A DNA stretch of 64,000 nt from Proteromonas lacertae (lineage: Eukaryota). Position 1 is the first letter of the stretch; every line of letters begins with the position of its first letter. Below the pieces are notes generated by a model. That model had not been told where the DNA came from. It made no database searches and was given only the letters and a program-made list of their open reading frames with translations. Below are positions 1,604 through 29,719 of the stretch, piece after piece. The DNA is taken from assembly GCA_002245135.1 (NCBI GenBank), contig NGBS01000873.1, forward strand, positions 248,001 through 312,000, read 5' to 3'. Position numbers and translations under genes: made by a program.

Positions 1604-1761
1604 TAAATAATTAAAATATTATAAATATTAATATTTGTCTTATTTTAGAGTTATTTTTGAAAAATTAATTTAATTAAATGTAACGAATATATTGAGGAAT
1701 ATTTTTTTAATGATTATCCCAAATACTCACATATACATTAACAGAACGAATTAAATGATAT

Positions 1762-3263: not shown

Positions 3264-3408
3264 TTATTATATTATAATGTTAATTAAATTAATTTATGTA
3301 GTAAATATAAGATGTAATAGAAAAATCTAATCGAAAAGTGAAACAGCTTGGCTTGAGACGAACAGTTTTATTTAAAAACAAAAAATTCAATCAATAAATA
3401 ATATATAA

Positions 3409-4637
3409 TCACTTAGTTTCATGAACAGGTAATACTTGAATACTACGTCTCTTACTATTCACAGTTTCAGGACTTACGTTCTTCGAAAGAATTTGTAAGG
3501 ATTTTACACTAGTACGATGATTGATAGTGGGTGTACTTCTCACCATATTCGAATATATCAATGAATTTCTTTTAGAAGTTGACACTGGCTTTTCAATCAT
3601 ACTAAGTTGAATCATTCTGTTTAAATCATTTTGAGATATATCAGGACTTTTATAATAACTAATCATTCGGTCTTTTTCCTTTTTCTCTTTATAAATATTT
3701 ATAAATCTGTCTCTTAATACACTAATTATTTCACTCAGAGCATAGAGAGCTGGATCAGTTGTACCATACTCTGAATAATACGGTTTTGGAAGACCATTCA
3801 ACTTTCTACTTACACATGAAAAGCAACCTTCCTTCGGATATGATGTGCAATTAGGATTAGTATAAAAATAATTACATTTTGCAATGATGGAATCATACAA
3901 ACCTCTACTCATTGTACACTTTATCAATTTCTTCCTAAATCCTTCGATATAATCTAAAAATCTCTTCGATTTGTTTAAATAAATTAAAAAATCAGTTAAT
4001 AAATAGGAATCTAAAGGACAATCTGGATCTTTTCTTCTTTCTACACCAAGTACTGCACACATCTCAACTAAATTATGATTAATTTCATATTCTGTGAATA
4101 ACTGACTGATTTCTTCAACTTTGATGTAATCTGAAGTAAATATATTTGTCATAGATAATAATAACAATGCAATATGAGAAATATCATAGAAAATAAATAT
4201 ACACACGAATATGAAATAACTCTCATAAGACATTTGATCTATTCAACAAAATTTACACTAGAATAATACTTGTATTGAAGAATTTAAATATTAAATGATT
4301 ATAATCTTTACCTATTTTCAACACAAACGTTAGAGTTGGAACATAATCTACAGATTTGTCAATACTCCACATTTTAAGGTAACTTTTATAAATAATGTTT
4401 ATATCATGATTATTTACTATATTATACAACATTATAAACGATAAATATACAGAATAGAGACTTTGCTACTAAATATGAGTTCTGCGGTAAAGGAAGCAGT
4501 AGACAATTCCAATTGTACATAATTTTATTCATTGAACGGTATGCTCCTTTCTATAAGCAAATCAATATCATAATTATAAATACTAACGAAGCCATGCCAA
4601 CACTAGCATTTATTTCATCATCATAATGCTGTGACAT
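3409..4637 (-). CDS. Tandem family copy 3
   Basis: ATG 4637; three short GT-AG introns at the conserved positions; variant motif PKEGC...PKPYYSEY; C-terminal QVLP. Confidence 0.85.
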
Positions 4638-4819
4638 GTTTGATTTATTTTTTTATTTGTTAGTTGTTCCAATAATTCAAAATACAATCTCATATAAAGC
4701 CGTTACATATTTTATTCTTATTTTTCACACAAAAACAATATAATAAATATGTATATTACAACTTAATTTAATAAATAATATCCATTTGTTAAATAAATAT
4801 TAATATTCAAATAAAACTA

Positions 4820-6095
4820 TCATTCTTTATGATCAGAATTATTCTGAATAACAGGAATTGTTCTTTTAAAGGATATAGCCGTCATTGGAGAGCCAGATGG
4901 CGATAAAAACATATTCCTTTTACTACTAGTATGTAAATTAGTCAAATTATTACTATTGATAGTTCGTTTATAAATACTGTTATTACTGTTACCTATTGAC
5001 TCATCTTTTGGACTTGGATTTGTAGGACAATTACTACTAAAACTGTTATGACTACTTTTCATAGATTGTTTCTTCATCAACAGTGATTTATGTTGTATAT
5101 TTACATTAGAGGATACTCTAGAACTTTGTCTAGCTCCATAACCATGACCTTGTCTCAAACTATAGATCATTTCGTCAAATAGTATGTTTTCAGGTGTACT
5201 AACACAATAATCAAAATGAAATGGTGGTGGATCATTTGTAAATAATTCCCTTAATATTAAGCTCTTACAACTTTCCTTGGGTATAGGTTTATTTACTGCT
5301 TCTGGATTTCGATAGAAATATTCTAATCTCATCTTTATATTATTATAAATTGTAGGATTTAACACAGTTGTAGATAATTTAAATTTAATTTCTTCAATCA
5401 TTGAGTTGAAATAATTGGAAGATTTCAAATACTTTATAAATTCCTTTAAATAATATGCGTCTTTTGTATCACTTAAAGCAGAGTTTGTCTGTGCTGATAA
5501 TACTGATATTAAATTACTGAAAGAGTCATTATTTAAGTAAAATCCATTTACAAATCTAGCTAACTGCTTAGTGGTGATAAATATATTACTGTGAATTTGC
5601 GTTAAAGACAAGAACAATAATATTAATCTATCCACATCAAAAAACAGAAATAGACAAACAAATTGAAAATAATCATCATAATAAATATCCGCTATTATTA
5701 TTATATAAAAATATATAATTATATATAATTATACAATCTTGAAAAAACATTCTTATTACTCCTTGTAACTTAAAAGGGTAAAAATTTAATAATTTCGCAC
5801 AGGGTATATATGTCTTTGATGGTTCAGTGTACCATATCTTCACATAAGACTGGAGAATTAAATCTATTTCTACATTGTTGACTAACAATATAAAATGATT
5901 TACTAAAACATACGGAATAAAATTTCACACATTCTTATACAAGGTTCATTCATCTGTATAAGTGTTTGTATGTAAAAACCTTTCGATCGTTTTGTAATTG
6001 AACGATATGCTGCTTGCTGCATACAATAAAATAATCATCTATACTAATGTATGTATGGAAGGATATGATAAAGAACCACGTACTTCTTGGGTCAT
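4820..6095 (-). CDS. Tandem family copy 4
   Basis: ATG 6095; three conserved introns; motif PKESC...LFTNDPPPFHFDY. Confidence 0.85.
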
Positions 6096-6245
6096 TTGTT
6101 ACTACACAACAGAATTAATCATTTATTAAATATATCAAAAAAGTGTAACGTATAAATTTCACCAACGCAAAAATCTTAAATCATTAAAAATAAAATAACT
6201 TAAACATATAAACTACAGGACGGTTAAAAAATGTAATGATCATTA

Positions 6246-7413
6246 CTATACAGTGGTTGTATTGTTGTTGTTTGAAGTAGGTAATACTTTATTACTCTTC
6301 AATTTCTTAATATCAGTGTACGAACCACTTACTTCTCTTTTCACATCTGAATCTGTACGATTGATATTATGTGATGATGGCTGTTGTGGAGGAGAAAAAA
6401 TACTCTTATGCACACTCCTATTAATACTATTCTTCGAATGAAGAAAAGACAAAACGGAAGATCCTTTTTTCGAACTTCGCCTAAATGAATAACCATAGAA
6501 CCTTCTTAATATCAAAATCATTTCATCATAACTGCTGGGAGAAGGAGAAGAGAGCTTAAAATCATAATGATAAGGAGGTGGTTCATCTGTAAATAATATT
6601 CGTGTTAAATGTGAACCACATGATTCTGATGGCGGAAATGGCTTTGTTCCATTGTAATAAAACTCCATACGCGTTAGTATTGAATGATATACTCTATATG
6701 TGAAAATAGAGTTAATTAATATATTTCTAAATTCAGATATAAATGTATTGAATGGTTGGGATTTTTTGAAGTAGTTTATAAACTCTTTGATGGGATATGA
6801 ATCTTGTTTGGAGTTTCTGTCCATCTTTTCGGTTAGCACAAAATATAGATCTTTGTAGGAAGCTTGATTTAGTGAAAATGATTTGAAAAACATTAATATT
6901 TGTTTCTATTTCAACATAATTAGATAGAATATACTTTTGTAATTAATATATTACTATGTATTTTACACATCGATAAAAATAAAGGGATTAAACGACTATT
7001 ATCAAAAAATGTAAACACACAGACAAAAATGAAGTAATAATTATAGTAAACTTCCTCTATAAAATAATATAATAACACAATATTATACTATCAAAAAAGA
7101 ATTTTCTAATAAAACCATGACAAGGAGTAGGAAAATAATATAGCAGCTTGCTACAAGGTACATAATTTGTCTGTTGTTCATTCATCCATATAAGCAAATA
7201 GGAACGTAGTATTAAATCTACTTCATAGTTATTCATGTATAAAGTTTGAGCCATTAAACTAGCAGTAGGAGTCAAAGGCAAATATGTTTGTAGGGTTTTG
7301 CGAATATGACCTCCTTTCATTAATGAATAAGCGTTTCTCTAAAACTATTAATATAACACAAATACCAAGCTATCTATAGATAAGTCAGGTGTAGTGGTAT
7401 CATCTTCCTCCAT
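6246..7413 (-). CDS. Tandem family copy 5
   Basis: ATG 7413; lacks family intron 2; motif PSESC...LFTDEPPPYHYDF; C-terminal NKVLP. Confidence 0.85.
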
Positions 7414-7621
7414 GGTTTAATTACAATTTCGTAAATGTAACTGAAACGATATCAAGCCTCAAATAAATAAAAGTTTCAAACCCCATAAAACTGAAAAAAA
7501 GAATCAACCATAAGACTGTTAATAATAACATGAAAAGTATTTAAACATGGTCATGAAGAATAAAAAAGAAGCAAAACAACAACATACACAAAATCAAATC
7601 AAATAAATAACTAAACTTAAA

Positions 7622-8802
7622 CTAATTACTTGGTAAATCAGAATCATTTATTGGATTTATTCTATTCTTAAAAAATGATCTGTGGGAATGTACTTCAGAA
7701 CTATTTTCTTCCATTGCTTTTGACAATCTTACACTTCCTTGTTTCATACTGCTACTTATTGATATATTACTATGTTTTACTCTCCTTTTCCACATACAAG
7801 AGCCAGAACTACGTCTATCAGAATATCCATAACTATATCTTATTGCATAAATCATATCGTTAAATGATTTCTTATTTAGAGATATTAATTTAAAATCATA
7901 TTTATAAGGCGGTGGAAGCTCTGTAAACAGTAATCGAGTTATACTGTCAATACATGATTCTTTAGGAGGGTCATATATTGAACATGAATAGTAGAAGATT
8001 ATTTTCTTTTTAATGATTTGATATACTTCATCTGATATTACATGCTGTATTATTGATGTTCTTAATTCACTTAAAAAATGATGAAAATTGTCTTTTGATA
8101 TAAAATAAGATTGAAAATCTTTTAGGTAATATCGATCAGTAGAAGAATCTTGAGGAATATCTACTTTCATTTTATCATATATATCAGGATAATCGTTATT
8201 ATCAAGATTAAAACATGAAAAAAAGTTCAACACTTGTGACTAATAAATATATAAATATTATATATATATATATACTGATGTAATAAACAAATTACTGTGA
8301 ATCTTTGATATTGAAAGTAAAACAGGAAAAATTAATTCAGTTTCAAAAAATGTAAACAAACAAATGAACAAAAAAAAAACATTATATCCTATGTCTTCTA
8401 TATTATATGAAATAAATATCATATGAATATACTTATATTATTGAAAAATGAACCTATTAACTTCGAAAATTTCTGTGGGAAGAGATATTGTATTTGTGTA
8501 CATGGAATTGTATCAGATGTTGGATGGCTTGTCCATATGACTAGAAATGATCGGAGAATTCTATTAACTTCGTAATGATTCACTATTTATTAACTAAAAT
8601 CATAAATATACATAACAACGTCTGCGCCATTAAATAACTTAACGTATTTAGGCTTATGTACTCTTTTGAACAACATTCTCTCGATAAAGTCTTTATGTTC
8701 TTCCAAGCCTTTCTCTAATACAAAAATTATAATTTATATTCATACCAGTTTTTTAACAGTTGAGCTATCTGCTGTATTACTCACCGTCTCAGCTAAAGGC
8801 AT
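7622..8802 (-). CDS. Tandem family copy 6
   Basis: ATG 8802; four conserved introns; motif PKESC...LFTELPPPYKYDF; C-terminal NRINP. Confidence 0.85.
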
Positions 8803-9000
8803 AAAAACATTAAAATTAATTTTGATCCGTTTTTGTTTGATGAATCGTCATTTCGACATTCTCATCGATTGAGAATGTATGAAAAGATAGTAATCACACA
8901 TACACAACAACAATAAACACAAATAAATAAATAAACTATTTATTTATAAATCCAAAACACTTACACAAAAAATATGGTATTTGTACAACATAAACAATAT

Positions 9001-10190
9001 TTACAAAACTGTGGGGGCAAGCTGACTAATTTTAGTAGGAATCATATGTGATTTCTTTGAACTATCATAAGAAGACGAATTAAACGAAATAATCCTCGAA
9101 TTAGCTGACAATGCTCTAGATCTATGTTTAATAGAACTACTACGAGCAGCAACATTATTCAATGATTCAGTACTTCCAGCTTCTCTTATTTTACATCCAA
9201 TTGCAGACAATTTCAGAGTTTTAGGTCTAGATGAATAACCGAATAATAATCGCAAAGTTCTAATACATTCATCAAAGGAAGAGAGTGTAGAATTAGCAGG
9301 ACGATAATCATAATGATATGGGGGTAGATCTTCAGTGAAAATTTTCCTACACACAAAATCAACACAGCTTTCTTTAGGAGGAATTGGGTTTTGAGGGTTG
9401 AGATAGTAATATTGATATCTTCGTATTAATATATCACACTTTTTTGATTTTAATACATGAGTTTTGTTATAAATAGCTAATTTATAGAAATAGGAGGTAA
9501 AACTATCATCATTCTTGATAAATATCAAAAATTCTCTAAGAGAGTAGTTATCTTCTGTGGATGATAAAAATTCATCAATATTGTCTGTTCTGTTGATATC
9601 ACTAGCTTTACTCAAAAATCTAATAACATCTTCGAATTCTTGGTTAGACATGTTGAACGTTTGTATGAAATGATAAATTTGTGACTTTGTAATAAATAAA
9701 TTGCTTTGAATTCCTGCAATTGATAATAGCAGAGGTAATAAATGATTTAAATCAATAAATGTGAATAAACATATAAATATAAAGTATTCAGATATGTATA
9801 TAGGATCTACAAAAGTTGATATATAAATAAAAATACGATCATCAAAAAAAGCCCTGATTAAATTTCTATAATCATCAGGATAAAGCAAAATTAACTTGGC
9901 ACAAGAAAAACTAGTACTAGTCTGCACGTTACTCCACATGTTTAAGAAAGAAGTCAATATATCATCAATCTCAGTTTCATTCACTAGATTAATAAAAAAA
10001 ATGCATAGATACTGTATAAACATTGAGCTATAGATAATGCGGCTGAATTAAGAGGAAGAAAATGCTGAAGGTGAGTTCCTATTAGTCCTTTCTGCAAGCA
10101 GTTGTACGCGTTCTTCTAAAATAATATATATCGATTGTATGAAAATACGTAATTAATAATAGATATATCATTATTATTAATGTCCTTCAT
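9001..10190 (-). CDS. Tandem family copy 7
   Basis: ATG 10190; three introns; motif PKESC...IFTEDLPPYHYDY; C-terminal QLAP. Confidence 0.85.
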
Positions 10191-10227
10191 TTAACTATGA
10201 ATTTCAAAATCATATGACGAACAAGAT

Positions 10228-10237
10228 TCAAGCTTGA
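10228..10237. promoter_or_regulatory. Palindromic TCAAGCTTGA, an instance of the recurrent upstream TCAAGC/GCTTGA motif
   Basis: Lies 38 nt upstream of the copy 7 ATG; half-sites recur upstream of about ten start codons in the window. Confidence 0.4.
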
Positions 10238-10371
10238 CGAGCTTATTCGTCATTTTTCTTTTTTTTCTTTTTCTGAATCTCTAAAGCAAACTTTCATTAC
10301 ACGATCTCTCATTTTAATTCTCAAATATCACATACCATATACACAATTATTAATATATTATATTATATATT

Positions 10372-10376
<5 letters not shown>

Positions 10377-10410
<34 letters not shown>
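10377..10410. repeat. (TA)n microsatellite
   Basis: About 17 TA units just 3' of family copy 8. Confidence 0.9.
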
Positions 10411-10414
<4 letters not shown>

Positions 10415-10435
10415 TTATATAAACATATATTTCTA

Positions 10436-11659
10436 CTATTCAGTAGCAACAATTGAATAAGGGTATATTTTAGATCCTTTTGCATGATAGGGGAGAATGG
10501 CATTATTACTGTGATTTAATGATGCCTTATTACTATTACTAGTATTATTCAAAGTCCTTAATCGAGAACTTGATAAATTTTTATTACTTTTTCTAACCAT
10601 TGAATTTCTTATAGAATTAAAAGAACTTGAACTTCTTAGTTTTGTAGGAGATTTTGAACCTCTTGAGTTAATTCCACTTATTCTATGTACAACTGTAAAA
10701 TTACCTTTTAACATCCTTATAAAGTCATCAAATACAGATATAGATAGATCTACAGGACAATAAGTAAATGAATATGGTTGCGGTTTATCAGTGAATAAAG
10801 TCCTTATAGTTCTGTCTATACAAGACTCCTGTGGCGCTCTTACACCGGGATATTGATAGAAAAAATTAATTTTCAGTTTAATTCCCTCAGCTATATCAAG
10901 AGAAAGGATGTGATAAGTGATATAAGTCTTAAATTCATTTAAATGATTACATAATGCATCTGAAGTCTTACAAAACTCAATAACATCTTTTAAATGATAA
11001 GTATCTTCAGAAAAACTATTTATTTAAATGTATTAATAAGATAATATATATACGATGATTCATGTTCTAAATTATTATAAAATTCTTTGAATTGTTTCAC
11101 CATTTCGTCAGGTAGGTTGTATGACTTTATAAATTTTAAAAACTGTTCCAATGTAATAAATATATTACTATAAACACGTGTCATGTAGAACAGTAGTGGG
11201 ACTAACTGCTCATATTGAAAGAAAGCAAAAACACATATAAAGGTAAAATAATCACTGTAATAGACGTTTTCTATACATTATAAGATTCAATGAAAATACT
11301 ATCACAAAAGTAATTTCTGACTAAAGAACGATATTTGTCAGGGAAGAAGTATAATAACTTACAACACGCTATGTAGTTAATACTTTGTTCATGCTTCCAG
11401 ATATTCAGATAGGACATTATAATATGATCAACTTCATATTCATTTACTAATAGAGCGTGAAAAAAGATCAATACAATAAAGTGCTTCTGCAACATCTAAA
11501 GCAATATAGCTAAGGGGTAAAAACTTTTGTAGGTGTTCAGTTTTTAAATTACGACACATTGTTGTTGCTAACATCTACAAATAATATGATATGTAATACC
11601 AACTGACTAGCAGGTATATCTGAGCTGTTACTCGATATAGACACCCTAGATGTCGCCAT
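10436..11659 (-). CDS. Tandem family copy 8
   Basis: ATG 11659; four introns, including 11053..11016; motif PQESC...LFTDKPQPYSFTY; C-terminal SKIYP. Confidence 0.8.
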
Positions 11660-11761: not shown

Positions 11762-14700
11762 TTAAAGATCATAACTTTCTATTGGAGTCTTTGTAGGGAA
11801 ATTATTTTTCTCCTCCTCTATAGATCCTTCAGGTGTAACTAATTGAGGAAGAACTATCACAGGTAACTTTGCAGCTGATCTTCTAGGCTCAATTGTGACT
11901 TTTCTGGAAGGTGCTCTACTTTTTGGTATTATACCAACACTATTCAAAGCTGATGATTTACGTTTATCTAATCTCATTGCAGCTGATACTTTAGAAGGAT
12001 CATCATAGAATGTATCTGGCATGGATATAGTACATATTCCAATATTACACACAACAAATATATCTGGTTTTAATCTAAATCTTCCTCTAGTTACACTTTT
12101 TTTAGCTATACTTCTTGTTTTTTTAGATGCGTCTGAATTATCACCTCCACTGGATGTACCAAACGTTGTACTAGCTAATACACTTGCGAATAAGGTAATC
12201 TTTGAAGCAAATTGTAAAGCTATTATACATATCACACCTAATTCAACTCCAATTCCTCTTAACATCATTAAAGTATCAGGTTGTTTAGCCATCATCAAAT
12301 TTAATGGTATTTCCAATATACCCAATACAATCATTACACCAATGATAGATGCTAATGTTTTAGATTCGTTGAATTCTGAGGATGCTTTTCTCGTTGACCA
12401 AGCTAGTTTTGCACCCCATAAAAACAACACTATTACTCCACCTATTTCTATAAATGTGAATATATCATTCTCACTACATTCTCTGATGTAAACATCTTCT
12501 AAAAAGTTTGAATAATCACTACTATATGTTTTTACATAAACTGCTGGATCTACCACCCACCAGATTACTAAATACACGCTTTGGACTACTTCAATTATTA
12601 ATATTATCCTAATTAACATCCAATTGGATATTTTCACTCTCTGTAGATCTTTATTGTTGAATAATTTATGAATTCTCCAAGCTTTACAGAATAATATACT
12701 GAATAAAAAGTCTACAGATAAAGCTAATACCCATACTCTACAAAAACATACTCCCCAATTTGGAACTAATGTAAATATAAATCCAGAAACACTTATCATT
12801 ATTAATGCAACTATTTCATATGATAAAAACAAAGGTGAAGATAACTTAATCATCTTTACTTCTCTGAATAAGTAAATACCAACTAATAAACAAAGACATA
12901 CTATTATCAATATTATCATCAATACTAAAACAACATATCTTAAAACAGTATTTGTTTCAAATAATACAAACTTTTTACCCATTTTACATTCATCATTTTT
13001 CATATAAGTAAGTTGTGGATCTGGTTTTATTTCTTTACCTTGTCCTGGATATACTTTTGATAATACGCCATTCAATGTCCTCATTATGAAGAATGATTTC
13101 TTTGCATGATTATTGTATGTAATTTCTAATTTACCATTGGGAGCTTCATATGATACATACTTCATACTCAATCTTAAATATTCTCTACTTGGAAATGCTG
13201 CAGCTGATGATACAGTTACTGTTGATGAAGATGATGAAGATGTGCTTTTTAATATACCTTCTTCATTAGCTGCATATTCTACACCTGCTTTCCATAAGAA
13301 TATTGTTGAATAACTTGATTCAAACATTTCATTCAATTCTATGGCATCTAAATACATTGAATTAACTGATTGTGCAAAGGCTTTAGCTGATGTAGATGTT
13401 GAACTATCTGAATAAGATGATGCTATATAACAACCACTAATTGATTGAATATTATCTTCACTCAGATCAGCAGAATCATAGTAAAACAATAAGTATATGT
13501 AAGTTGACATATCAACATTATTAGCCTTTAAACGATTGATAAATTCATTGGTACTTTTACCTGAAAATAGATTGATGTATGCTATATTTGTACCATATAA
13601 TATTCTATTACTAGCTAATGTCTGTAAAAGTGTTGGATAGGATCTATCATTAGTGGCAGCAAAGAAGAAATTACCAACATAATTAATACCATTTTCTTCA
13701 CTGTATCTACCAATAGCTTCAGCAATTACTGATGTTTGATTTTCATTACCACCAAATATATAAATGTTACTAATATCCATTTTCTTTAAATACTCAACTG
13801 CAGCTATTGCTTTTTGATTTACACTTGATCCTGTAGTGATTGTATATTCTGAACATATATTACCATCATCTCTGCCTAAATAAAAGAATGTTAAATCACT
13901 TCTTGCTCCACTTAAATATCTATTTACTTCATCTCTACATCTCGAACTCATACAACCAAATATTGATTTGGTTTGAGTTTCAGTTTGAATTGATCTTACT
14001 GTTGGATATATTTTATTGAATGTTAAGAAGTAATGATTTGGTATGATTTTCTTACCATTTACTCCGCCTTCATCATTTATTTCATCTATTGCCATATCTT
14101 GAATTAACAAATTTTGCTGTTCAGATTTACCACCAACATCAATTTCATGGATAAAGGCAATATATATTGGATCTTCATTGTATAAATCTGTTTTTTCAGT
14201 CTTCCAATCACATACATATCCTATATATTGACCTTCTAGTTGGTTATATACCCTTGATTCTACATATTTAGATGGCATCCAATTGACAAGTATTACATTG
14301 TTGTCTGTTATGTAACCACTGTATATATTCCTTCTAAATATATTATTCTTTGCTAATTCTATTGTTCCTGATGGAATATCAGTCTGGAAATCGTATAATA
14401 AACTCACTTCATTCACATCAATCGAGCTTGAAGCTTGACACATATTCTTCCAATACAATAACAATGCATAAGCACTTTCATATTGAGTTCTTATTCTCAT
14501 TTTATCACCTATATTTATATGTAATCCTTGTGCGAATGATGAAGCTAAAGTTGGTATAGTTACTGATGAATATGTCATATCCTTAAGTGATTCAAAGAAA
14601 CTACCAATTACTATATGACCTGCTAAATATTTTGATTGTAAATCATTGAAGATATTCTCATCAAATAATGTATTATATACTGTATATTTTGGATATGTCA

Positions 14701-17700
14701 AACCTAATTCATACATCGCTTTATAGAAATGAGTGTAATATTCTTTACTTTCAAATGTGGCTATTATATATCCACCATTTGGAATTGCTTGTTGGATCAT
14801 TCTTAGTTGAACACTTGTCTTTTCTAAATCATATTCAATATTTCCCATCAATAAAATATTTGTATAACTCATTCTAGTTTGAATCATATCATTCAAATAA
14901 GTTGTATAATTAGATGGAGAATATACTGTTATGGCTGAAGTTGTATCTTCTAATATTCTTCTTATTGTTATTGTTGCTATTTGACTTGGATGTAATTCAC
15001 TAACTATTACATTCTTTGGACATATTTCATTGTAAGTATGTCCACAGAAGAAAAATAATTTATTCCTATTTTTCATTTCTTCTACAATTATTGGATAATC
15101 ATCAGGATTATAACCACCGAAAATGTAACTAATATCCTCATCTTTATCAATCTGTTGGAATATTGATTTATAATTAGTTGAATTAGATTTCAAATCATAC
15201 ACTCTATAGAATAATTGATATGTATTCAATAATGGATCCTTTTCATTTAAATAAGTAATACCAGCTAATATTGAATCAAATATTGGCTTTTCAATATCTG
15301 CATCTTTACCAGAAAATGATGTAATAATACCAATTCTGTAAGTGGAAACTGTTTGACCTGAACCAATAGTTAAATCACTAAAATCACAAATATAATAACT
15401 ATTATCTCTCATATAATATGCTTGAGGGAAATGAGGAATCTTTGCTGTATATACAATACTCCATTTATAGTTTAAATTCTTATATCCAATTATCAATTCT
15501 CTACCTAAATATTGATTTTTACCAAAACCAATTGTTCCTTCTTGAGTTTCTAATGTACCATCATCACTTATTAATTCCTTTCTAACCTTATCTACAGCAA
15601 AATCATTAATTCTATTTATAGCATTTGCCCATAACTTCATGGCAATATACACAGCTGAAATAACATCATTTATAAAAACTGATTTTTTATCTATTCTTTC
15701 GAATAAACTATTTTTGAAAACTTTATTGGCTGGTCGACTATTACCTATTGAACTGTAATAAACTAAAGTCTCATAATCATTTGTAACTGTCATCATTGTA
15801 TCAGATGATGGTTCACTAACTATCACATGTACTTTTGAAGATGGTAAATTATATTTTGCTATTTCATCTTTTAAATAGAGAAAATGTTCAGCTTTACCTT
15901 TAAAGATAATACAAACAGTTCTATCATCATTTACAGTAGAATATTCAAGTAATTTTTCATCTATCAACTCTAAACTATTAGCTACATGAACAATAGCTTC
16001 AACTCTTTCTAAATAGTCTCTAATATAATTACCAAATTCAACATCATCTTCTCTTGGGAAAGCTAATAAGAACTCATCATAACCTCTATTTCTTAACACA
16101 TTTAAACCTGGATCATATAATGATACATGATGGTTAGCTACAAATGTATTAGTATCACAAGAACCCATATCATATTTATATAAAAAGAATACCAATATGT
16201 TATTCTGTACTATCAATTGATAGGCTGGTTCTAAACATCTCTTTGTTGCTGAGAAGAATATTGCTTTTGGTTTAACAGTTGTAATATATTCTATCAATTT
16301 AGCAACACAAGTATCATATCTTGATTGTGTATCATAAATTTCACCTTTTAATTGTCTACCATTCACACCACCAGCTGCATTTATTTCATCTATTGCCATT
16401 TTAAATACATCCACTTCACCAGCATTATATTCTTCTAATTCACCAGTTAAACTTGCCAATAATAATATCTTTTCAGAACCTACTTCATATCTACTTGAAT
16501 TATGTTCTGGTGCAAATGAACACATGTATTTATATGTTTCAATAATATCCCAACTCCAAGCCATTGGTGATTGTTGATTTACCTTTGAATAAACTGTTGA
16601 GAATTCTTCACCATTTGAATCATATTTACCTATATAAAATGGTAATGATGGATAATGACTATCAGTAAAAGCAAATGTACCTAATGCATCTTCTGATGAT
16701 ATTGTTATTAGTTTATCTCTTATTACATCTGTATCAGTTACACCACTTTCTTTTACAGCTTTTATCCATAGTTTAACTGCTATATAAGTTGAATCAGCTA
16801 TAGCTGTTGTTTCTTTTGTATAAGTGTAATGATTCATTAATTTCTTAAATGCTGTGTTTGAATCACTCTCAATATCATTGAAATAATGATCTACTAAATA
16901 AATATCATGTCTTTGTAATTTAGTAAGTGTATTGTACTGATCTTTCATTGATAATATATCAATAAACAAATATTTCTTTCTATCTATAGCTAAATTTTCT
17001 ATTGCATTTAAAAATCTCTTTACATTGTTATTATCATTAATAACAAATGGAATAATACCTCCTTCTTTTCCATTTCCAAATGTATTTAATAGTGCAGTAA
17101 TTTCACTATTTTCAATTCCTTTCTCATTTGATATTGTATATGTTTTAGTGTAAGTATACATACCACTCCCTTGACTTTGAATAATTTGAGATAATGTTAC
17201 TGAACTACTATCAGATTCACTGATTATTGCTAAATTTGAATCAATACCAGTTGTAATTAAATATTCTAATACTTGTGGAACGAATTGATTGGGTAATAAG
17301 CCAGTGTAGAAAGTATCATAATCACATTCTTGACCAACAAATTTCTGTGGATAAATGAATAATATTTTATTCTTTTTACTCACTTTTTGACTTAATGTTT
17401 TACAGTCATTATCTATACATCCTATTAACACTTTTATATCATTTTCTACAATCATATTATTCACCTTTTCTTCTAATTCACTTTCTGTTATACTTGTATC
17501 ATAATTTATTAATATAGGTAAAACAATTTTACCATCAATTGTAAAATCTTCAGCATCCATTTTCTCATGAATTGCTGTAATTCCTCCATATAAACCTTTT
17601 ATACTAATTAAACGATCTGTTCCTTCATATTGGAATATTAAACCGATTTTTATTGTTTCATATTCACCATATATATTGTTTTTTATATCACATTTCTCTA

Positions 17701-20700
17701 AATTATGATTCACATTGTATAATGATAAAAATCCATCATTCTTTATTGGATAACTATATCTATAATCCTCAGCAGTTACAGCTTCATTTGCTTCATCCAT
17801 TTCAATAGTCAAAATCAATAATTTACCATCAAATTGATTATTATTGTTAAACTTAACTGTACCAAGAACAGTATCAATTTCAGTGTCATAAGATGAATGT
17901 TTCATTACATTTGTATCATTAGAACCATATTTATTAAGCATAAGTGCTAAATACCATCCAATTGCATTAGATCTACTAATCAACACAGATGTAGTTTCTA
18001 CAAAGGAATATCTAGCTGTAAACTCATTAGTAAATTCTTCTCGTGTCTTTTGAGTTTCTTCATCATTAACATCAATCGCATATGTAAAATAATGACCTTT
18101 TAATTTATTACCTAAATGTGTAACTGATTCGGATGTTAATTCAGTACTAATTGATATATATTGAGGAGGTTTCATATTATGTTCATACAAACTGGTGATT
18201 AATACTTCAGCTGCTGGTCCTTCTAATACAGACACTATTAAAGCACCATTTGTAGCAACTTGTTTTGTTAATTCAACATAACCATCCATATCTATATCAT
18301 CAATTGGAACAGTGAATTCCATTGTAAATGCTAATGAATAAACACTTAATTCTTTCTTTAATTCTTCACCTAATGCTATTGAATAAGTTGTACTACTTTG
18401 GATTAAAACAATATCATCTTTTTCATGATCCATTATCCAATAAAGTAATATGAAATAGGAGTTTAATGTTAAACCAAAATAATATGTGTTTTTCAAACAT
18501 TCAAAACCTTCATAATCACTTTGAATTATCAAAGTCTTGTTCAATTCTTCAGCTACTAAATCACCTTTAATTCTATATGATTTTCTCCAAGCACCAATGA
18601 TATAATCAAACTTATATTTTTCAGAATATTCTTTTATTCTAAAAGCTAATTCTTCTTCAGTATCTCCACTGGTAAAAACATACATCTTTGCATATTTACC
18701 TTCTATTCCTCCTTTATTATTAATCTCATCAAATGCAGTTTCTAAACCAGAAATAAAATAAATAGAATTCTGGAAATATTGGTCAGTCAATGGGATCTGA
18801 ACTCCAAACACTATAGTAGGAACAGAATAATTAGATCCTCTACCAGTTTGCCAATTACATTCATACACATTCACATTATTATACTCTAAGTAAAATGGTT
18901 TTGGTTCATAATTATTACTCAATGTAATATTATGTGTTAGTCTTCCAGTAGAACTTATTAATCCTATATATATACCTTGATTAATATGATTATTGCTACT
19001 AAATATCCATTCGCCTAAAGTGGTATTAACCAATGAAGTAAACATTAATTTCTTTACATAATCATTATCTAAAGAAGTACCTAATCTAAGTGTTTCCACA
19101 AATTGCAATACAACTGAATACATGCAAATATCATAATAATTTGGATCAATCCAATGTCCTGTCACTGAGTAAAAGTCAGTAATATAAATATCATAAATTC
19201 CTGTTCGTTCTGGTACAAATGGAGTAACTACATAATGACCAGCTGAGTCTGTCGCATTGTATTGTATTTGACTTGTATCAAATAAATACACTGTATATAT
19301 TTGAGCACATTCTTCACTATTCTCAAAATTTCTACATACTTTCTCATTGAATAATCTGAAGAATATCTTTGCTTCAGTATATTCAAAGAATGCTAATATT
19401 CTTCCACCATTTTCCATTTTCTTCACTGCTTTAATGATCTGATTAGTCATTGATGTTTCATCTCTTCTATTTACTTTTCCAATGTATAAAACCTCTCTTT
19501 CATATGTATATAACATTGATTTCAAGAATTCAACTCTTCCTTCATACAAATCACCATCAGTAGCTCCATATAAGATAGAAATTGGTTTTTGTTTTCTTAA
19601 AGTTGATAAATATGTAACAAAAGGATAAATAATTTGATTTGGTACTACAAAAGGGTAAAATACATTATCTTCACATTCATTTCCTTTACCATAACCAGTG
19701 TAAAATAAAAACATATTAGTGCTTTGAATTACTGGAACTAAATAATCTTTAGTTTTTTCATTGCATCCTCCAAATAAATACTTCATATTTCTTCTTTTTA
19801 ATTTGATGACTAAATCAGATGCATCTTTTTGGTTTGTAGGACAATCGTGTAATTCAATTCTGATATATTTGTTCTGTACACTTCCAAATCTATTCATCCA
19901 CGCATTCAATTCAAACTGTGAAATATAAGAGAAATGAAAATGACTTTCCTCATTGTGGGTAATATCTAATATAAATGCAAATCCAATAATATCATCTTCA
20001 ACCATTACTAATGGAGGATTTACTGAATAATCACTAGTTAAATACTTTTCATCATGTAATAAATAGAAGAACGGCTCTGGTTTAGATGGTGAATTAATAG
20101 CTATATAATCAGTAGGAACTAAATCTAATAGTTTTGATACAGCAATGGTAAAACTCATATGATTATCAAGTGTAACAGGTAAATCACCTAATGGAGACAA
20201 TATAACATTATTATATAAATATGTTCTTAATGCAAAACTATCATCTTTATATTTCTCACTTGCTGTGATTGCACTTTGCATTAATGATAATGCTATGTAG
20301 GTGGATAACTGCAATTCGTTAAAGATAATGGAAGAATTACCTTTAAATGTATCTATTTGATTCTTTATCATATGGGCTTGTTCATTGATTGAATAATCTG
20401 ATAAAATTGTGCTTACCATCACATCATCTAATAGATTCTTATCATCTAAACTATAAAACATTGAAGATGCATAATCCAATATTAATATTGGCATTTGTTC
20501 ATCAGGATAAGAATATTTAAACTCAGCAAGTAAAAAGACTGTGTAATTCTGTAATGTTGTGTATAAAACATACTCCGATGATGCATTGTTGGTTTTATTA
20601 TATATTTCTTCACATAAAGCTGTCCAATTGGCTGAATTTGCATCACTAATACTGATGCTATCATATACAGCATTGAGATTTTCTACATACTTTTGAGAAT

Positions 20701-23670
20701 AAAGGAATGTATTATAACAATCTCTATTTAAAAGATAATATAATATGTATACTCATTATTCTTAAGATAAACAAATAAAAACTTCTGTCCTTGAGATAAT
20801 CTAATATGAAAAGATATCAACAGCCTTTGACTTGGTATAGTATTAATCTGAATTATATTCTGATATGTGATTTCTCCACCTGATGGAAATATTGAGAATA
20901 AAACTTTATCTTTTTCCACTAACAAATCATCAATTGCATCTCTTTCTTCTCTGAATTGTGCACCAATTAAACAGATAATATCATTATATTCATCAATTTT
21001 GGATCTAATTTGTTGTTGTAATTCTTTCATATTTGAATAATGAATATAAAGTGGTAAAATTTCATGAGAATTTAACCCACCATCTTGATTTAATATATCA
21101 AACATAACATTTATATATTCCATAATTAAACTATCAGCAAATGAATGTCTATCAAACACTAATATAATGTGGTAAGAATTTAATGGTTTGACATGTAATT
21201 CACCATTCTCAAAAATACACTTTTCTGTCAAATTGTGTATTACAAATAACCTTGTACTAGAAAATTGCCTCATTATTGCTGTAGAATTAACTTCCTTTGT
21301 AAATTGATAAATTCCTAATTTGGCTTGAGCATGACTTGAATAGTATAGTTCATATTGATCATAAGCAGGTGTTTTAACAGCTTGGTGGAATATATAATTC
21401 TTATATAATGATGGTAAATAAGATGAAGATGATTCAATAGCTTGTACTAATAGTGATATAATATTAGTTATTAATCCTAACTCTGAGAATATTGGTATAT
21501 CTCTTCCTAAGAATTCTTTGTAATATCGTCTATATGGATCTAATACTTCTGATTTTATCATTGTACTAGAATGTGCAATAAAGAAATAACCTTCATACTA
21601 TATACATAAATATAAATAAATTATGATAATATATATATATATATACATCTATTTTTTCTATACTATCTTTCTGTTCATCTACATATGTTTCATCTAATCC
21701 ATATACCAGTACTGTATAATTATTCGCATAAGTCATCGATTCATTATATAATACCTTCATTATAGATGGAATATAATCACTTTCAGTAACCACAATAATC
21801 GCTGTATGATTATAATCACCCATTGTCATTAGTTTAATATTTGTAGTTGCATTTCTTGCTTGTATTTCTGATGTATCTGCCATTTCAAAAAAACCAATTC
21901 TATTCTCATAAAATCCTCTTTCAATTAAATCATTATATAATATCTTTCTACTAATTGTTCCATAATTAGTGGTTGATGAAATAATAGCTATTTTTCCATA
22001 ATAATTATTCTTTTGTAAGTATGAAGATACTAATAACGAATATGCGCTTGTTTCAATATTTCCATAGATTACATTATCTTCACATGTATCACCAGCTGCT
22101 TCATTCATATAGAATATTTGAATATCCAATCCTCTTATTGATGATGATATGTTGTGCATTATTTCTGGTGATGTAAACATAAAAATTGATGACATTTCAT
22201 ATTCACTATTATATTCTTTAATTGTATTAATTGTGTCAGAAACAGTATCATCTTTCACATCGATTAATAATGCTTTCATTTGTCTTCCTAATATCAAGTT
22301 CTAATTAATGATAATAATAATAATAATAATATAAAATTATTATACATTTTCCCCATAATTTCTCATTAGTTTTTCAATAAATATCTTGATTAATCTATTC
22401 TTATGACTTGCCATATTCAATACAAATCCAATGGGAAACATTTCTAAAGTTGCATTACCATCCACTGAATTCTGTACAAAATCACAAACAACATTATCAA
22501 TTTGATTATAGACCTCATTCACTCTAAAATCAGTTACAGCTTCTATAAAATAGGTGATTTTTTCATCATATCCATATTTCTTTGGATCTGAGGTATAATC
22601 AGGAATATCACTGTTAGTTTCAACGAATTTAAATGGAACTGATAGATAATTATTGGGTGTTAAATACATTGTTCCACCTGGATAATCTATTGGTTCATTA
22701 TACATCAATGATAATAACGGATATATCTTATCGGATGGAAATGTTTCAGCCATATATTGAATTTTGTCAAGCAAAGCGAATACATATGTAAACATTGCAT
22801 CTCTAGCATCATTGAATTTATCAGGATAACTAGTTTTATATTCTGTAGCTAATTTATTATCCTCAAAACCAGTATAACTAGTAATTATTTCATTGTTCTG
22901 TTTTAACAGTATTTTACTCAAATATTTATAATTTAAACTTCCTGGTAAGAAAACAATTGGGTAATTCTTTGGATCTGACTTACCTATATTAACTACAATC
23001 ATATTTTTAACAGATAAAAGTTGAGTAATCTGAGGTATTTGACTGTTCTTTACTATTATCATACATTTGGGAACTTCAGTTATTTTAGTAAACAGACCAA
23101 GGCCAGTTGACATGTCAATAACAGCATGCGAAGATTCAACAATATTTACACCAAAATACTTTGCAGTAGTATTGAATCTTTCTTCATAAAAAGTGTCATA
23201 TTTTGTATTTTCATATAGAAATGCAACATTTCCATCATAATTAGCTGCAGCGATTGATAACACTATAATATAAAATACATTAATATACAGTTTAAGATTA
23301 ATGGTATTACAGTAACTCCACTAATAAAGTGTTTATTACATCTTCCTACACTTACTTCATTCATACATATAATCAACACAGTATCATTTGTAATATATGA
23401 AGAAGTAGAATTGAGCAGTTCATCATCACACACTGCAAGTATAATCTCAGTTTTTTTAGTTTCCACTTCTTCTTTTATAACTTTATCATAATCTGCTGTA
23501 CTATGACAAGATAATGTATCTACACTATGAATTGTGATATTTGGATGATTATTGCTGTATGGTTCTAGGAAATCTTTAAAATACATATTAGAATCACCTT
23601 CAAAGTATGCAATATTCAAGTGGTATGATTCTACAACTACAAAATACAAATAAATAGCTATTAATAACAT
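11762..23670 (-). CDS. Giant class C (GABA-B-like) GPCR, ~3,919 aa: signal peptide, nine tandem type I periplasmic-binding (UrtA/AmiC/FmdD-like) domains, 7TM
   Basis: ATG 23670 starts the signal peptide MLLIAIYLYFVVVES. Introns 23288..23263, 22345..22301, 21646..21598 and 20752..20724 join five exons into 11,760 nt in frame. The 7TM (~12950-12200) has the class C motifs IKLSSPLF, CKAWRIHKLF and SEFNESK. Ectodomain repeats include YPQKFVGQECDYDTFYTGLLPNQ and FGCMSSRCR, resembling UrtA. Confidence 0.9.
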
Positions 23671-24946: not shown

Positions 24947-25470
24947 TCATTCTACTTTACTTCTACCAGAGGGAAGTATTTTATTTCTCGAACTATACTT
25001 CATTTTATCCGAAGATATAGAAAAGAGAGAAGATGAAGACTTTTTACCGAATGATTTGGCATTAGCACTTTTAAAACTATTACACTTATTCTGTTTTTCA
25101 GATTGTTTTCTACTTCCATATCCACGAAGTTGTTTTAACTGAATTACTAGATTATCTTTAGCAGTTGTTGAAGGAATCGGTAGAATAAAATCGTAATGAT
25201 AAGTAGATGGTTCTTGTGTAAATAATTTACGAGATAAAAACTCACAAAAATTTTCTCTTGGAGGTGTATATATTCGATTTGGATTTTCATAGTAAAATCT
25301 TTGTCTTTTTAATATTCTTACGTATAATCTAGGTGACAATATATACTTAATAAAACAAGATCTTATTGAATCTAGACTACTTCTTAAAGGAATTGAAGAG
25401 CATACGAATTTTGTAAATGCTTTAATTGAAAACATTGGTTCTTTACAACTATTACAGATAATAAATACAT

Positions 25471-25501
<31 letters not shown>

Positions 25502-26193
25502 CTCTGGTAAATCAACTATATTCTCATTCAAAAAATGATTATAATCATTAGTAGTAGTACAATGTCGAAATATACTCAAAATTGAATTAATCTGATTCTA
25601 ATTATCAATATATAGATAATAAAAATTATACTTGTGTTATATATAAGTTACTATATATTTTCTTCATTGCAAACAATAACGAGATTAACTGTTCTGGAGA
25701 TAGAAAAAGACATGTACAAACAAATTGAAAAAAGATGTCATGATCTATTTTATCTATAACCATTATATTAGATTGTTATTTATATATTATAGAATATATA
25801 TATATACCTGTTTCATATATACGAGTGATGAATAGGTTTTTAGTACTTGGATATTTTTGTCTTAATTGACTGGCTGATACATATGATTTATCTTGACCTT
25901 TAGACCATAAATCTAAATAAGATTCATAGATACAATTGATTTCATATTTATTTACTAAAATCAGATAATTTGAAGCATGTAATACAAATAAATGTTTGAG
26001 CCATGATAAAACTCTTCACTGATAGCGAAAGATATAGTTTATATGACTTTTTCCTTTTCAGGATTAATCTTTTGTGATAGATCTCAGACTATACACATCA
26101 AATTACTCTATAAATAGATTATACCAACTCATCTGCTGTAGGAAGGCAAAACTGAGCATCTTGACTTTGTATAACTGATGCAATAAAAGACAT
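24947..26193 (-). CDS. Tandem family copy 9 (all five family introns)
   Basis: ATG 26193; five GT-AG introns restore frame; motif PPRENFC...LFTQEPSTYHYDF; C-terminal NKILP. Confidence 0.85.
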
Positions 26194-26366
26194 TTGCTTG
26201 AGACATAGTTTGACAATTTTACTTCATTTTTATTTAAATTAAATATCTACTGCTAGTGCTGTAATTTCATTTCAAATTACTACAGAATGAAACATATAAA
26301 AAAAAATTAAAAAAAATATTCTTATTTAACACAGTTTTATTATACTCAACTAAAAGATCCTAGTTT

Positions 26367-27484
26367 TTAAACTGGATACACTCTATTATTCTTTTTAGAT
26401 GATAAAATATGAGAATTATGAGACATATGTACAGATCTTAACATTGAAGAATCACGACTAAGTCTACTTGGGGTACATTTATTAAGACTGGATCTACATC
26501 TATTACCATACCCTTTAATATATTTTATTGTCAAAATTAAATTCTCTGGGTAATTTAAAGATATATTTGACAAAATATAGTCGAAATGATATGGAGGTGG
26601 TTCATGTGTAAATAATATTCTTTGTATATATGCAATACATGGTTCTTTAGGTGGATCAAACACCTTTGCTGGATTATTAATGTAATACATCTGTCTATGT
26701 ATTATATGTGAATATATTGATGGATCTAATATGCGGTATATAAATGATAGCTTAAGATTATTTAATATTGACTCAAATGTAGGAGATTCACTTATTAATT
26801 GGATAAATGGTTTAATTGAATAGACATCTTCTTCACAATCAGACAAATTGAGATTATAATCATCTTGAAATTGGTGCAATTCATCTTTTGTTATTACTCC
26901 TTCAAATAAGTCCAAAACCATATTAATTTGACTCTACATTATAATATAAGCATAACTATATATATACTTGTGTTATACAGATATTACTATGGATTTTGGA
27001 ATGAGATAAAATGATTGTCATGATATGTGTAGGATTTAAAAACAGTATTATACAAACAAATTGAAAAAATGAATCATAGTATATTTCATCTGATTCAAAA
27101 AATACTGAACATATATTTGAAGTAAATGCACAAAATCTATTCCTGAAACTACTCACAGGAACATAATTAATTTCTGGATTCTCTCTCCAGAGACTTAAAT
27201 ACGCCATATATATACAATTTACTTCATATTTATTCACTATAAAACAAATAGGTATATATAATACACATAAATGTTTGAGTTATAAAATGACTGAAGGATG
27301 AGAAGGGTAACAACAATTCAGAAACAATTGTCTTGCGATATTTAATACAATGATCACTTAAAATTTTCTATTACAGTGTAGATATACACATTAATACTAA
27401 TTCGTCTGTTGTGGGGTAAGAAATGGTGTCATCGGTACGTATATTAAGTGAATTTTTAATACTACTAGTTCTATGCGATTCCAT
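26367..27484 (-). CDS. Tandem family copy 10
   Basis: ATG 27484; lacks family intron 3; motif PKEPC...LFTHEPPPYHFDY; ends NRVYPV. Confidence 0.85.
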
Positions 27485-27841: not shown

Positions 27842-28955
27842 ATGGAATCTTCTTCTCTTGATCTTGAAAGTACAATGTTATTTTAAATATTCATATAAGA
27901 TTATCCTGATACAAGAAATTTAACAAGCGATGAAATCGAACTTTTGAAACAGAATGGCAATAGAGTTGAAAAGGATGAATGGGATAGAGTAAAAATTAGT
28001 ATAAAATCTGTATTATTTGATCCAACTAAAATTATTAATTGTTATTTCCAAGGAATAAATATCTTAGGTTCAACAGAATCTGAAGATGATTCTTCCAATT
28101 ATGAGTTAAGAAATACAACTTTTGAAAATTGTATAATTCATGATTATTGCAAAATTGTAAATAATAATTTAATAAAAAACACAGAAATATTTGATAATGT
28201 AAAAATCAGTGGTTGTGGAACTGTTACATACGATGGTTCATCTCAATTTGGTGAATTAACAGAAGTTTTATTAGGAAATGAAATTGGAAAAAGAGTAATT
28301 CCAATTAATTCATCAATGAGTTTTAAGGAAGTATCTAAGATAGTAGAGAAGAAGAATGAATTAGTTAAATATTCACCAATAATAAAAATAAGTAAATGCA
28401 ATATAATTGAAAAGAATTGTGATATTGAAAATTGTAATAGTTTAATCAATATCAAACTATCACCAAATACAAAAGTATCTGGTTCATCTTTAAAAGATAC
28501 AACAATTACATCAAACTCAAAACCAGTTCACATCATCAATATGTGTGTATTAGATCATGTGATAGTAAAAGATGGTTGTAAAATAGAAAATTTAGCAATT
28601 ATTTCAAGCAGTATGGTATTTGAAGGTTGTCATATTGTTAATCATGGAAAAATCACTGATTCTATAATTGGACCATATACAGCAACATCGTGTGGTGAAA
28701 TTCATAATTCGTTCTTAGGTCCATATGTTGCAGCACATCATCAAAGTTTAGTTCAATCTGCCATTATATTAGATGGTAAATGCAATATTGCTTATGGTTC
28801 AAATATAGGTAGTAACCATACAGGAAGAGCTCCAGATCAAGAGTTGTGGAGTGGTGAAGGTGTTTTCTTTGGTTTAGGATGTAATATTAAATATCCAATT
28901 AATTTGATTGAATCTCCGCATTCGATTATTGCAAGTGGTGTTTTAATGTTACCAC

Positions 28956-28993
<38 letters not shown>

Positions 28994-29719
28994 TATTTTT
29001 ATTAATAATAGACAATGTCAATGCCATTTTCTCTAGTAAATTCTCCAGTTAAACATTATCCAGAAATGTCTCCAGTTTATAATGAAGTATTTCCAGGTTG
29101 GATAATCTATCAAAGTCCATATTCATTAGTAAGAAATACTAGAAAATATAGAACAAGAACCACAGGAAATGGTAGTACAAATACTAAAGTATTTACAATG
29201 AAGACAATACAGTATATTATCCAAGCTAAGAATCAATTAGAAAGTGTTAAAAACACTGGTGAAAGAGAAAGGTTATATACTGATCAAGATGTACCAGGAT
29301 TAGGTAAAAATTATATGTTAGAAGAGAGTAGAATTGCTGGAATTAATGCATATAAAAGAGCTATATTGTTGTATGCATTGGAAGGATTATTTGATGAATG
29401 TTTAAAACAGAATTATACTGATCCAAAGATGGATATAAATCAGATAGAAAATGTTACAACTGAATTTAAATTTCAGATTCAATTAATCAATGACTATCTT
29501 TCTACTAATATATTATCAGTTGCTTTGAAGAAGTATGTGTTAATGAAAGAGAAATTGTTTGCTGATTCAAGAGATTCTAAGAATCGAGATGATATTCGTG
29601 GTAGAAAAATTATTCCTAATTATGATGATTATTATGAAGGTAGTGAGAATGATTCTGTGATAAATTCAGAAAAAGAGATCTTTGAATCTCAAAAAGAACA
29701 ATTATCTCAATTATTATAA
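27842..29719 (+). CDS. DUF4954-like left-handed beta-helix (hexapeptide-repeat) protein
   Basis: Three exons. N-terminal RNLTSDEIELLKQNGN, hexapeptide-like I-x-D/N-x-C-x-I repeats and NIAYGSNIGSNHTGRAPDQELWSGEGVFFGLG, which I recall from DUF4954 proteins. Confidence 0.7.

Follow-up and report, generated by a model that had tools for sequence, protein, structure and literature searches.

A predicted class C receptor with nine tandem UrtA-type flytrap domains encoded in Proteromonas lacertae

Gene and Domain Organization

A 64,000-nucleotide stretch of DNA from Proteromonas lacertae (contig NGBS01000873.1, positions 248,001 to 312,000, GC content about 0.27; hereafter the window, to which all coordinates refer) contains a gene at 11762..23670 (-), which an earlier note, made from the sequence alone, had read as a giant G protein-coupled receptor (GPCR) of class C. 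An uninterrupted frame at 11762-20752 (-) spans 2,996 codons from stop to stop, and four shorter frames lie upstream of it. Twenty-four combinations of candidate GT..AG introns were tried, and two of these gave a single open frame that begins with an ATG at 23670 and ends with the stop at 11762. The first working model comprises intron 1 (23263..23288, 26 nt), intron 2 (22301..22345, 45 nt), intron 3 (21598..21646, 49 nt), and intron 4 (20724..20752, 29 nt), all GT..AG and, like all features of the gene given below, on the (-) strand; its five exons encode 3,919 amino acids (aa). In the second, an alternative donor at 20782 extends intron 4 to 59 nt and gives 3,909 aa. Scores of the two models on homologs (326 vs. 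329 and 237 vs. 236) were indistinguishable.

A search of proteins of 1,647-5,243 aa gave three matches among 5,320 candidates, including P0001, an uninterrupted protein of 3,886 aa. P0001 aligned with the 3,919-aa model over residues 8-3841 with 30% identity, spanning all four junctions. The proposal that four short introns join the long frame to the upstream frames in a protein of about 3,919 aa was borne out by this collinearity and by the single open frame, and sequence comparison confirmed a real single gene of five exons for a predicted receptor. The first 16 residues are hydrophobic, P0001 and P0003 start similarly, and a signal peptide was predicted by eye at aa 1-17 (23620..23670).

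Nine repeats start at aa 18, 404, 794, 1178, 1570, 1957, 2351, 2728, and 3119, within 2 nt of the starts proposed earlier, and the first transmembrane helix (TM1) starts at about aa 3525. Repeats 1 to 3 occupy 22436..23619, 21172..22435, and 19991..21171, repeats 4 to 6 occupy 18815..19990, 17654..18814, and 16472..17653, and repeats 7 to 9 occupy 15341..16471, 14168..15340, and 12950..14167. Repeats 4-9, scanned singly, all exceeded the Pfam Peripla_BP_5 cut-off of 27 with 55-102 bits (55 bits for repeat 4, 80 bits for repeat 7), as expected for the type I periplasmic binding protein domains that had been anticipated. A profile of repeats 4-9 scored repeats 1, 2, and 3 at 32, 54, and 59 bits, while the highest score among 188 listed shuffled or reversed control sequences was 5.1 bits; repeat 1 is the most divergent Venus flytrap of the array. 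Repeat 1 of P0003 gave no score against this profile. The membrane-proximal repeat 9 carries a Ser/Thr-rich insert. The ectodomain before TM1 measures about 3,500 aa and contains 27 N-glycosylation sequons; the tail has none.

The seven-transmembrane (7TM) domain (12197..12949) scored 116 bits against Pfam 7tm_3 (E 2.6e-33, cut-off 33.5), and all seven helices were present in an AlphaFold2 model. Its closest solved structure is GABA-B2 (E 2.3e-15), in agreement with the earlier description of the domain as GABA-B-like; aligned with GABA-B2, the Lys-x-Trp-Arg motif of TM3 and the start of TM6 match. When GABA-B2 and 11 family members were aligned, the basic motif of TM3, the acidic motif at the start of TM6, and the cysteines of TM3 and extracellular loop 2, all of which have functional roles in class C receptors, were found to be kept. 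With its 7tm_3 domain, large N-terminal region, and TM3 and TM6-start signalling motifs, the protein is a predicted class C (glutamate family) GPCR. An NCD3G cysteine-rich domain gave no match at E ≤ 0.1, TM1 following directly after repeat 9, which places the protein outside the mGluR/CaSR/T1R subgroup. In six repeats scanned singly, ANF_receptor stayed below its cut-off (best 22 vs. 25.4), so that the single ANF_receptor flytrap of a GABA-B receptor proper is not found either. The cytoplasmic tail and stop (11762..12196) end the gene. Three short tail motifs (12002-12169) are common to P0001 and P0002 in an otherwise divergent tail and are candidate effector or trafficking sites.

Relationship of the Repeats to Bacterial UrtA

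Searched against PDB, the profile of repeats 4-9 matched UrtA (cyanobacterial structures) over its full length with an E-value of 1e-55, followed by AmiC (5e-19) and LIV-type proteins (3e-9 or weaker). No eukaryotic flytrap, and no GABA-B flytrap, occurred among its 29 PDB matches at E ≤ 1. The earlier note had described the repeats as bacterial urea/amide-binding domains, UrtA- or AmiC-like, rather than eukaryotic ANF/GABA-B flytraps; the bacterial affinity and the likeness to UrtA held, and AmiC proved clearly more distant. The long frame scored 358 bits against the UrtA family model TIGR03407, summed over 7 stretches and below the cut-off of 492.75. The lead of cyanobacterial UrtA in profile score persisted without the tail and with cysteines masked (228-255 vs. 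197-206 bits), and short branches may be an alternative cause of this lead.

An AlphaFold2 model of repeats 8-9 and the 7TM domain, built from 38 family rows with bacterial sequences excluded, reached a predicted local distance difference test score (pLDDT) of 89 and a predicted template modelling score (pTM) of 0.80; a single-sequence model (pLDDT 35) was unusable. Modelled repeat 8 superimposed on UrtA with a Z-score of 44.2 and a root-mean-square deviation (rmsd) of 3.3 over 380 residues, C-terminal tail included, and modelled repeat 9 on another urea-binding protein with a Z-score of 42.0. Matches of the model to AmiC (Z 39.8) and to the best eukaryotic flytrap listed (Z 32.2) scored lower. 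The predicted type I fold was thus found in both modelled repeats, and homology to UrtA extends, in sequence and in fold, over the whole domain including the tail.

The alignment of repeats 4-9 contains two invariant residues, both cysteines and both present in cyanobacterial UrtA. In the 145 bacterial sequences first examined, the two were without exception jointly present (57) or jointly missing (88), a count in which 56 of the 57 two-cysteine sequences had been chosen for the tail cysteine. Among single-domain matches, 11 of 93 had the first cysteine without an aligned tail cysteine, which contradicts a strict pairing rule. Both cysteines were kept in 140 of 148 domains of AT-rich family members and lost from repeat 3 in all three full-length copies examined (the window protein, P0001, and P0003). 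The earlier note had most repeats ending in a cysteine-containing word; repeat 3 has no terminal cysteine. The paired cysteines probably form a disulfide that pins the tail of each repeat.

Conservation of the Array and Its Relatives

Window repeats were 10-18% identical to one another and 24-39% identical to the repeat at the same position in P0001. Similarity to P0001 increased along the protein: repeats 1-5 were about 25% identical, repeat 9 39%, and the 7TM domain 51%. Across divergent homologs, each of the nine repeat positions formed its own clade (support 99-100). Since the repeats resemble their P0001 counterparts more than each other and group by position, the array is old and its order fixed. 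An amplification that was recent or peculiar to this gene does not fit these clades, nor the nine much better preserved repeats of the distant relative P0092. The sole DNA-level likeness between repeats was a 43-nt segment of 84% identity at 16357-16399 and 14053-14095, close to where repeats 7 and 9 begin.

Word-indexed searches gave no matches, whether repeat 6 was used by itself or repeat 9 was combined with the 7TM domain among shorter proteins; a profile search run exhaustively over 1.84 billion representatives then yielded 150 proteins, which with P0001 made 151 examined. At least three repeats were present in 42 of the 151, and at least 17 of the 151 had a 7TM domain by a profile made for this analysis among the matches listed; Pfam 7tm_3 was confirmed in all eight such homologs tested. 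Many other homologs end inside repeat 9 or begin inside repeat 4 or 5, probably as a result of breaks at introns. Nine repeats were found in P0001, P0003, P0137, and P0092. Forty-two proteins with at least two repeats match the AT-rich composition of the window, and most of them keep the order of repeats 5-9. Family loci were also sought in metagenome contigs, with 136 pattern matches, and in viral contigs, with one match, and none was confirmed; the ESM Atlas yielded class C clusters with a single flytrap and binding proteins of bacteria only.

A few relatives without AT-rich composition, P0092, P0124, and P0146, are far nearer to UrtA. Eight conserved urea-site residues have been described in Prochlorococcus UrtA (W120, S122, Y141, Q144, E146, Y190, N246, and S274), and substitutions at S122, Q144, Y190, N246, or W120 are reported to weaken or abolish urea binding (PMC10392092). 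In P0092 (3,745 aa, first repeat cut), five of nine repeats have all eight, and these five are 45-56% identical to a cyanobacterial-type UrtA. One of three repeats of P0124 has all eight, and the first repeat of P0146 has six. The membrane-proximal repeat is degenerate in all three proteins. P0146 is a hypothetical protein (KAJ3101170.1) of the chytrid Phlyctochytrium bullatum; for the other homologs, a eukaryotic nature is suggested by their 7TM domain or kinship. The public gene model of P0146 departs from UrtA just past the Tyr-Pro-Val stretch (residues about 135-160), perhaps owing to a mis-called intron, so that more of the urea site may be preserved in its first repeat than six of eight residues indicate. 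Position-specific profiles gave no one-to-one match of P0092 repeats to window repeats, and a common nine-repeat ancestor of the two is therefore unsupported.

The 7TM domain of P0146 scored 16-20 bits against that of the window protein, and that of P0092 102-106 bits. P0153, which represents a cluster of 46 members, carries a pair of UrtA-type repeats together with a short stretch rich in Cys, a single membrane helix, and a glutaminase domain at its C terminus, and is possibly a nitrogen-sensing receptor enzyme. Because the P0146 7TM domain is distant and P0153 joins the repeats to a glutaminase, fusion of the UrtA module may have happened more than once. Two further AT-rich proteins, P0202 and P0151, have N-terminal membrane helices and one UrtA domain nested within the receptor-type clade; the P0202 cluster lies on contigs of up to 34 kb, and a viral source is possible. 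Six probably bacterial proteins of about 1,500-1,600 aa (P0117, P0119, P0121, P0122, P0135, and P0150) carry an intact UrtA domain at both ends, with HEAT or NTPase matches in between in three of the four that were scanned.

Phylogenetic Position of the Repeats

A tree that included the slow-evolving members (54 rows, hand-picked from the matches, and 382 columns; LG+G4; window repeats 1-4, 7, and 9 omitted) grouped receptor-type repeats and the window lineage with support of 97/97, along with two single-domain proteins. This group lay in a Cys-pair clade with cyanobacterial UrtA (98/98), the label cyanobacterial being based on named cluster members for five of seven representatives. The intact relatives lend good support to an origin of the repeats from UrtA, and a cyanobacterial donor is favoured.

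Ligand Pockets and Proposed Function

In UrtA numbering, window repeats 1-9 keep 1, 1, 0, 1, 2, 2, 0, 0, and 2 of the eight urea-site residues, and Q144 and Y190 are kept in none of the nine. Across the group of 42 AT-rich proteins, all 163 complete domains have 0-4 of the eight, and Y190 is kept in 3 of 203 domains. Window repeat 5 has W120, R125, Y145, and E146, with Q144 replaced by Asp. R125 and Y141 each occur in 21 of 28 repeat-5 domains of AT-rich paralogs, and each residue of the Asp-Tyr-Glu stretch at 144-146 in 18 of 28. In 16 of 28 repeat-5 domains, acidic residues stand at both 144 and 146, as compared with at most one domain at any other tested position (3-9). The paralogs sharing this motif are only 22-33% identical to the window protein. 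In repeats 6 and 9, an additional Cys-x4-Cys motif lies on the W120-S122 binding loop (31 of 38 repeat-6 and 33 of 34 repeat-9 domains); it is found in none at positions 3, 4, 5, 7, and 8. Across paralogs, pocket columns of repeats 6-9 are less conserved (0.25-0.29) than their domains on average (0.35-0.37), and pocket motifs peculiar to a given repeat recur among close orthologs, such as an Arg-Asp-Asp stretch in repeat 9.

We propose, with about even confidence, that the gene encodes a class C GPCR whose nine tandem flytraps derive from a cyanobacterial-type UrtA and which acts as a chemoreceptor, with a non-urea cationic site in repeat 5 and a stalk formed by repeats 6-9. Repeat 5, the best candidate ligand site, would be the one retained and re-tuned site in the middle of the array, and its ligand would be a small nitrogen solute, probably cationic, other than urea. 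The change would be relayed to the 7TM domain by repeats 6-9 serving as a stiff stalk, repeats 6 and 9 being structural and stapled by their Cys pair, and the receptor would dimerise and couple to a G protein. In the history that we envisage, a eukaryotic class C 7TM domain acquired a UrtA domain by fusion, the UrtA domain was amplified into an array whose order then became fixed, and entire receptors were later duplicated into a repertoire with diverged pockets.

Several observations weigh against this proposal. Repeat 5 lacks Y190 and its lobe-2 sites are variable, so that it may bind nothing; the pockets of repeats 3 and 4 are on average as acidic (net 2.3 and 2.1, vs. 1.7 in repeat 5), and pocket conservation in repeat 4 is also above background (0.41 vs. 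0.34). How closure in mid-array would reach the membrane across four domains is left unexplained by the proposed relay, and the TM7 proline of GABA-B is missing from the 7TM domain. Repeat positions in homologs were assigned by hand from best-hit order. With respect to the placement of the repeats, approximately unbiased (AU) tests on 26 rows did not reject any of three alternatives, in which the long window branches are moved to the outgroup (p 0.43), the same branches join proteobacterial UrtA (p 0.23), or the receptors are kept apart from every bacterial UrtA (p 0.35), and three trees without slow-evolving members did not settle the sister group (AU p 0.12-0.29).

The strongest competing explanation, to which we assign a clearly smaller though appreciable likelihood, is that different solutes are bound by several of the nine repeats or by all of them, the pockets of repeats 6-9 having diversified among paralogs. 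The two-lobe fold is kept throughout the array, low conservation of the pockets in repeats 6-9 would be expected under diversifying selection, and the pocket motifs common to close orthologs also suit such a multi-ligand integrator. Relaxed constraint, however, explains the low conservation equally well; moreover, in slow-evolving relatives the degenerate repeat is the membrane-proximal one, and the extra Cys pair is placed on the very loop that would bind ligand in repeats 6 and 9. Somewhat less probable still is a role as spacer, adhesion molecule, or force sensor, in which flytraps that bind no small molecule form a long glycosylated rod touching surfaces or cells. The widespread loss of urea residues in the AT-rich domains, the restriction of sequons to the ectodomain, and the confidently modelled arrangement (pTM 0.80) of the 7TM domain with repeats 8 and 9 are consistent with such a rod, but preservation of the repeat-5 pocket motif across such divergent paralogs would be needless in a pure spacer.

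The multivalent urea or amide sensor suggested in the earlier note is improbable for the window protein. UrtA ancestry and the urea residues kept in P0092, P0124, and P0146 speak for it, but with at most two of eight contacts per window repeat, at most four in AT-rich domains, and Y190 nearly gone, the window protein is unlikely to sense urea, given that single substitutions weaken or abolish binding in the UrtA studied (PMC10392092). Judged from these residues, a urea reading would suit the conservative relatives and not the window copy. A mis-joined gene model, with the upstream exons belonging to separate genes and the receptor being shorter, is very improbable, since, despite the two possible donors of intron 4, P0001 (3,886 aa) and P0003 (3,244 aa) begin with a segment resembling a signal peptide and continue unbroken through the same succession of repeats, and the long frame without the upstream exons already carries six full repeats and the 7TM domain.

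More broadly, and with confidence slightly short of even, we suggest that these proteins represent an undescribed family of eukaryotic class C GPCRs built from cyanobacterial UrtA. P0092, P0124, and P0146 would then be true urea receptors, and the window lineage a nine-domain scaffold multiplied into dozens of copies with re-tuned pockets, forming a chemosensory repertoire that signals via a chain of flytraps and not by the single-flytrap mechanism of animals. Models of class C activation involve one flytrap per subunit. A family whose members carry from two to nine flytraps in a set order, distal sites intact and proximal ones degenerate, makes the distance over which closure reaches the 7TM domain a testable question. 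We know of no GPCR for urea, and the intact members are candidates for one. The series from intact to diverged repeats would trace the conversion of a transporter binding protein into a receptor repertoire.

Genes Surrounding the Receptor

The window contains typical eukaryotic genes (kinesins, WD40, RING, Tudor, and DEAH helicase). About ten tandem intron-containing gene copies flank the receptor on both sides (307-11495 and 24947-27279, (-)); the copies are 25-40% identical and have no Pfam match. A 1,729-aa open frame at 42328-47517 (+) gave multiple Tudor/Agenet-like matches. The gene at 27899-29005 (+) encodes a DUF4954 and hexapeptide-repeat protein and is a candidate for transfer, since DUF4954 is mainly bacterial. 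The 3'-end motif of Blastocystis was not enriched in the window (5 found vs. 6.5 expected), and, as class C 7TM domains are also lacking from the Blastocystis proteomes considered below, an assignment of the window to that lineage was discarded.

Comparison With Known Systems

A published supplementary table lists 116 class C 7TM, 182 type I binding-protein, and 7 G-alpha entries for Proteromonas lacertae, without architectures, and class C 7TM domains in none of eight Blastocystis proteomes (PMC12129017). Non-animal class C receptors with a periplasmic binding domain (Bmp, OpuAC, SBP_bac_1, PBP_like_2, TctC, or Peripla_BP) joined to 7tm_3 resemble the window receptor in this respect (PMC3251606, PMC3971589, PMC5168858). 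Among the domains reported, Bmp, OpuAC, LysR, PBP_like_2, and SBP_bac_1 occur with N-termini of up to 1,667 aa (PMC3251606), a supplement gives a Peripla_BP plus 7tm_3 architecture with copy numbers not stated (PMC3971589), and about 100 receptors whose domains are of type II are reported from gut fungi (PMC5168858). The N-termini there do not exceed 1,600-1,667 aa and the parts available mention no UrtA or tandem arrays, whereas the window ectodomain measures about 3,500 aa. The portions available of PMC10445921, PMC12842992, PMC12965686, and bioRxiv 10.1101/2025.04.15.649019 likewise contain no mention of UrtA-type or tandem flytrap receptors, and no report of a tandem UrtA array receptor was found in full-text searches, subscription papers lying outside their scope. 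Single bacterial-type-domain class C receptors are thus already known, and the tandem-UrtA family is apparently undescribed.

P0146 shares with the window receptor a signal peptide, UrtA-type repeats (the distal one intact and the proximal one degenerate in P0146), and a 7tm_3 domain; it differs in having two repeats and a distant 7TM domain, and may represent a separate fusion. UrtA itself (PDB 8hic, 7s6e, 7s6f; TIGR03407) agrees with the repeats in fold, length, Cys pair, and C-terminal tail, and with P0092 and P0124 also in a complete binding site. Unlike UrtA, a single periplasmic lipoprotein that feeds a transporter, the window protein carries nine copies on a eukaryotic receptor, in which the urea contacts are lost. 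GABA-B (PDB 7ca3_B) has a homologous 7TM domain with the same TM3 and TM6-start motifs, and its flytrap is likewise joined without NCD3G. There, however, one ANF-type flytrap takes the place of the nine UrtA-type flytraps of the window receptor. As the whole-chain rmsd of the model to GABA-B is 25-28 Å over about 715 columns, placement of the flytrap on the 7TM domain is predicted to differ from that in animal receptors.

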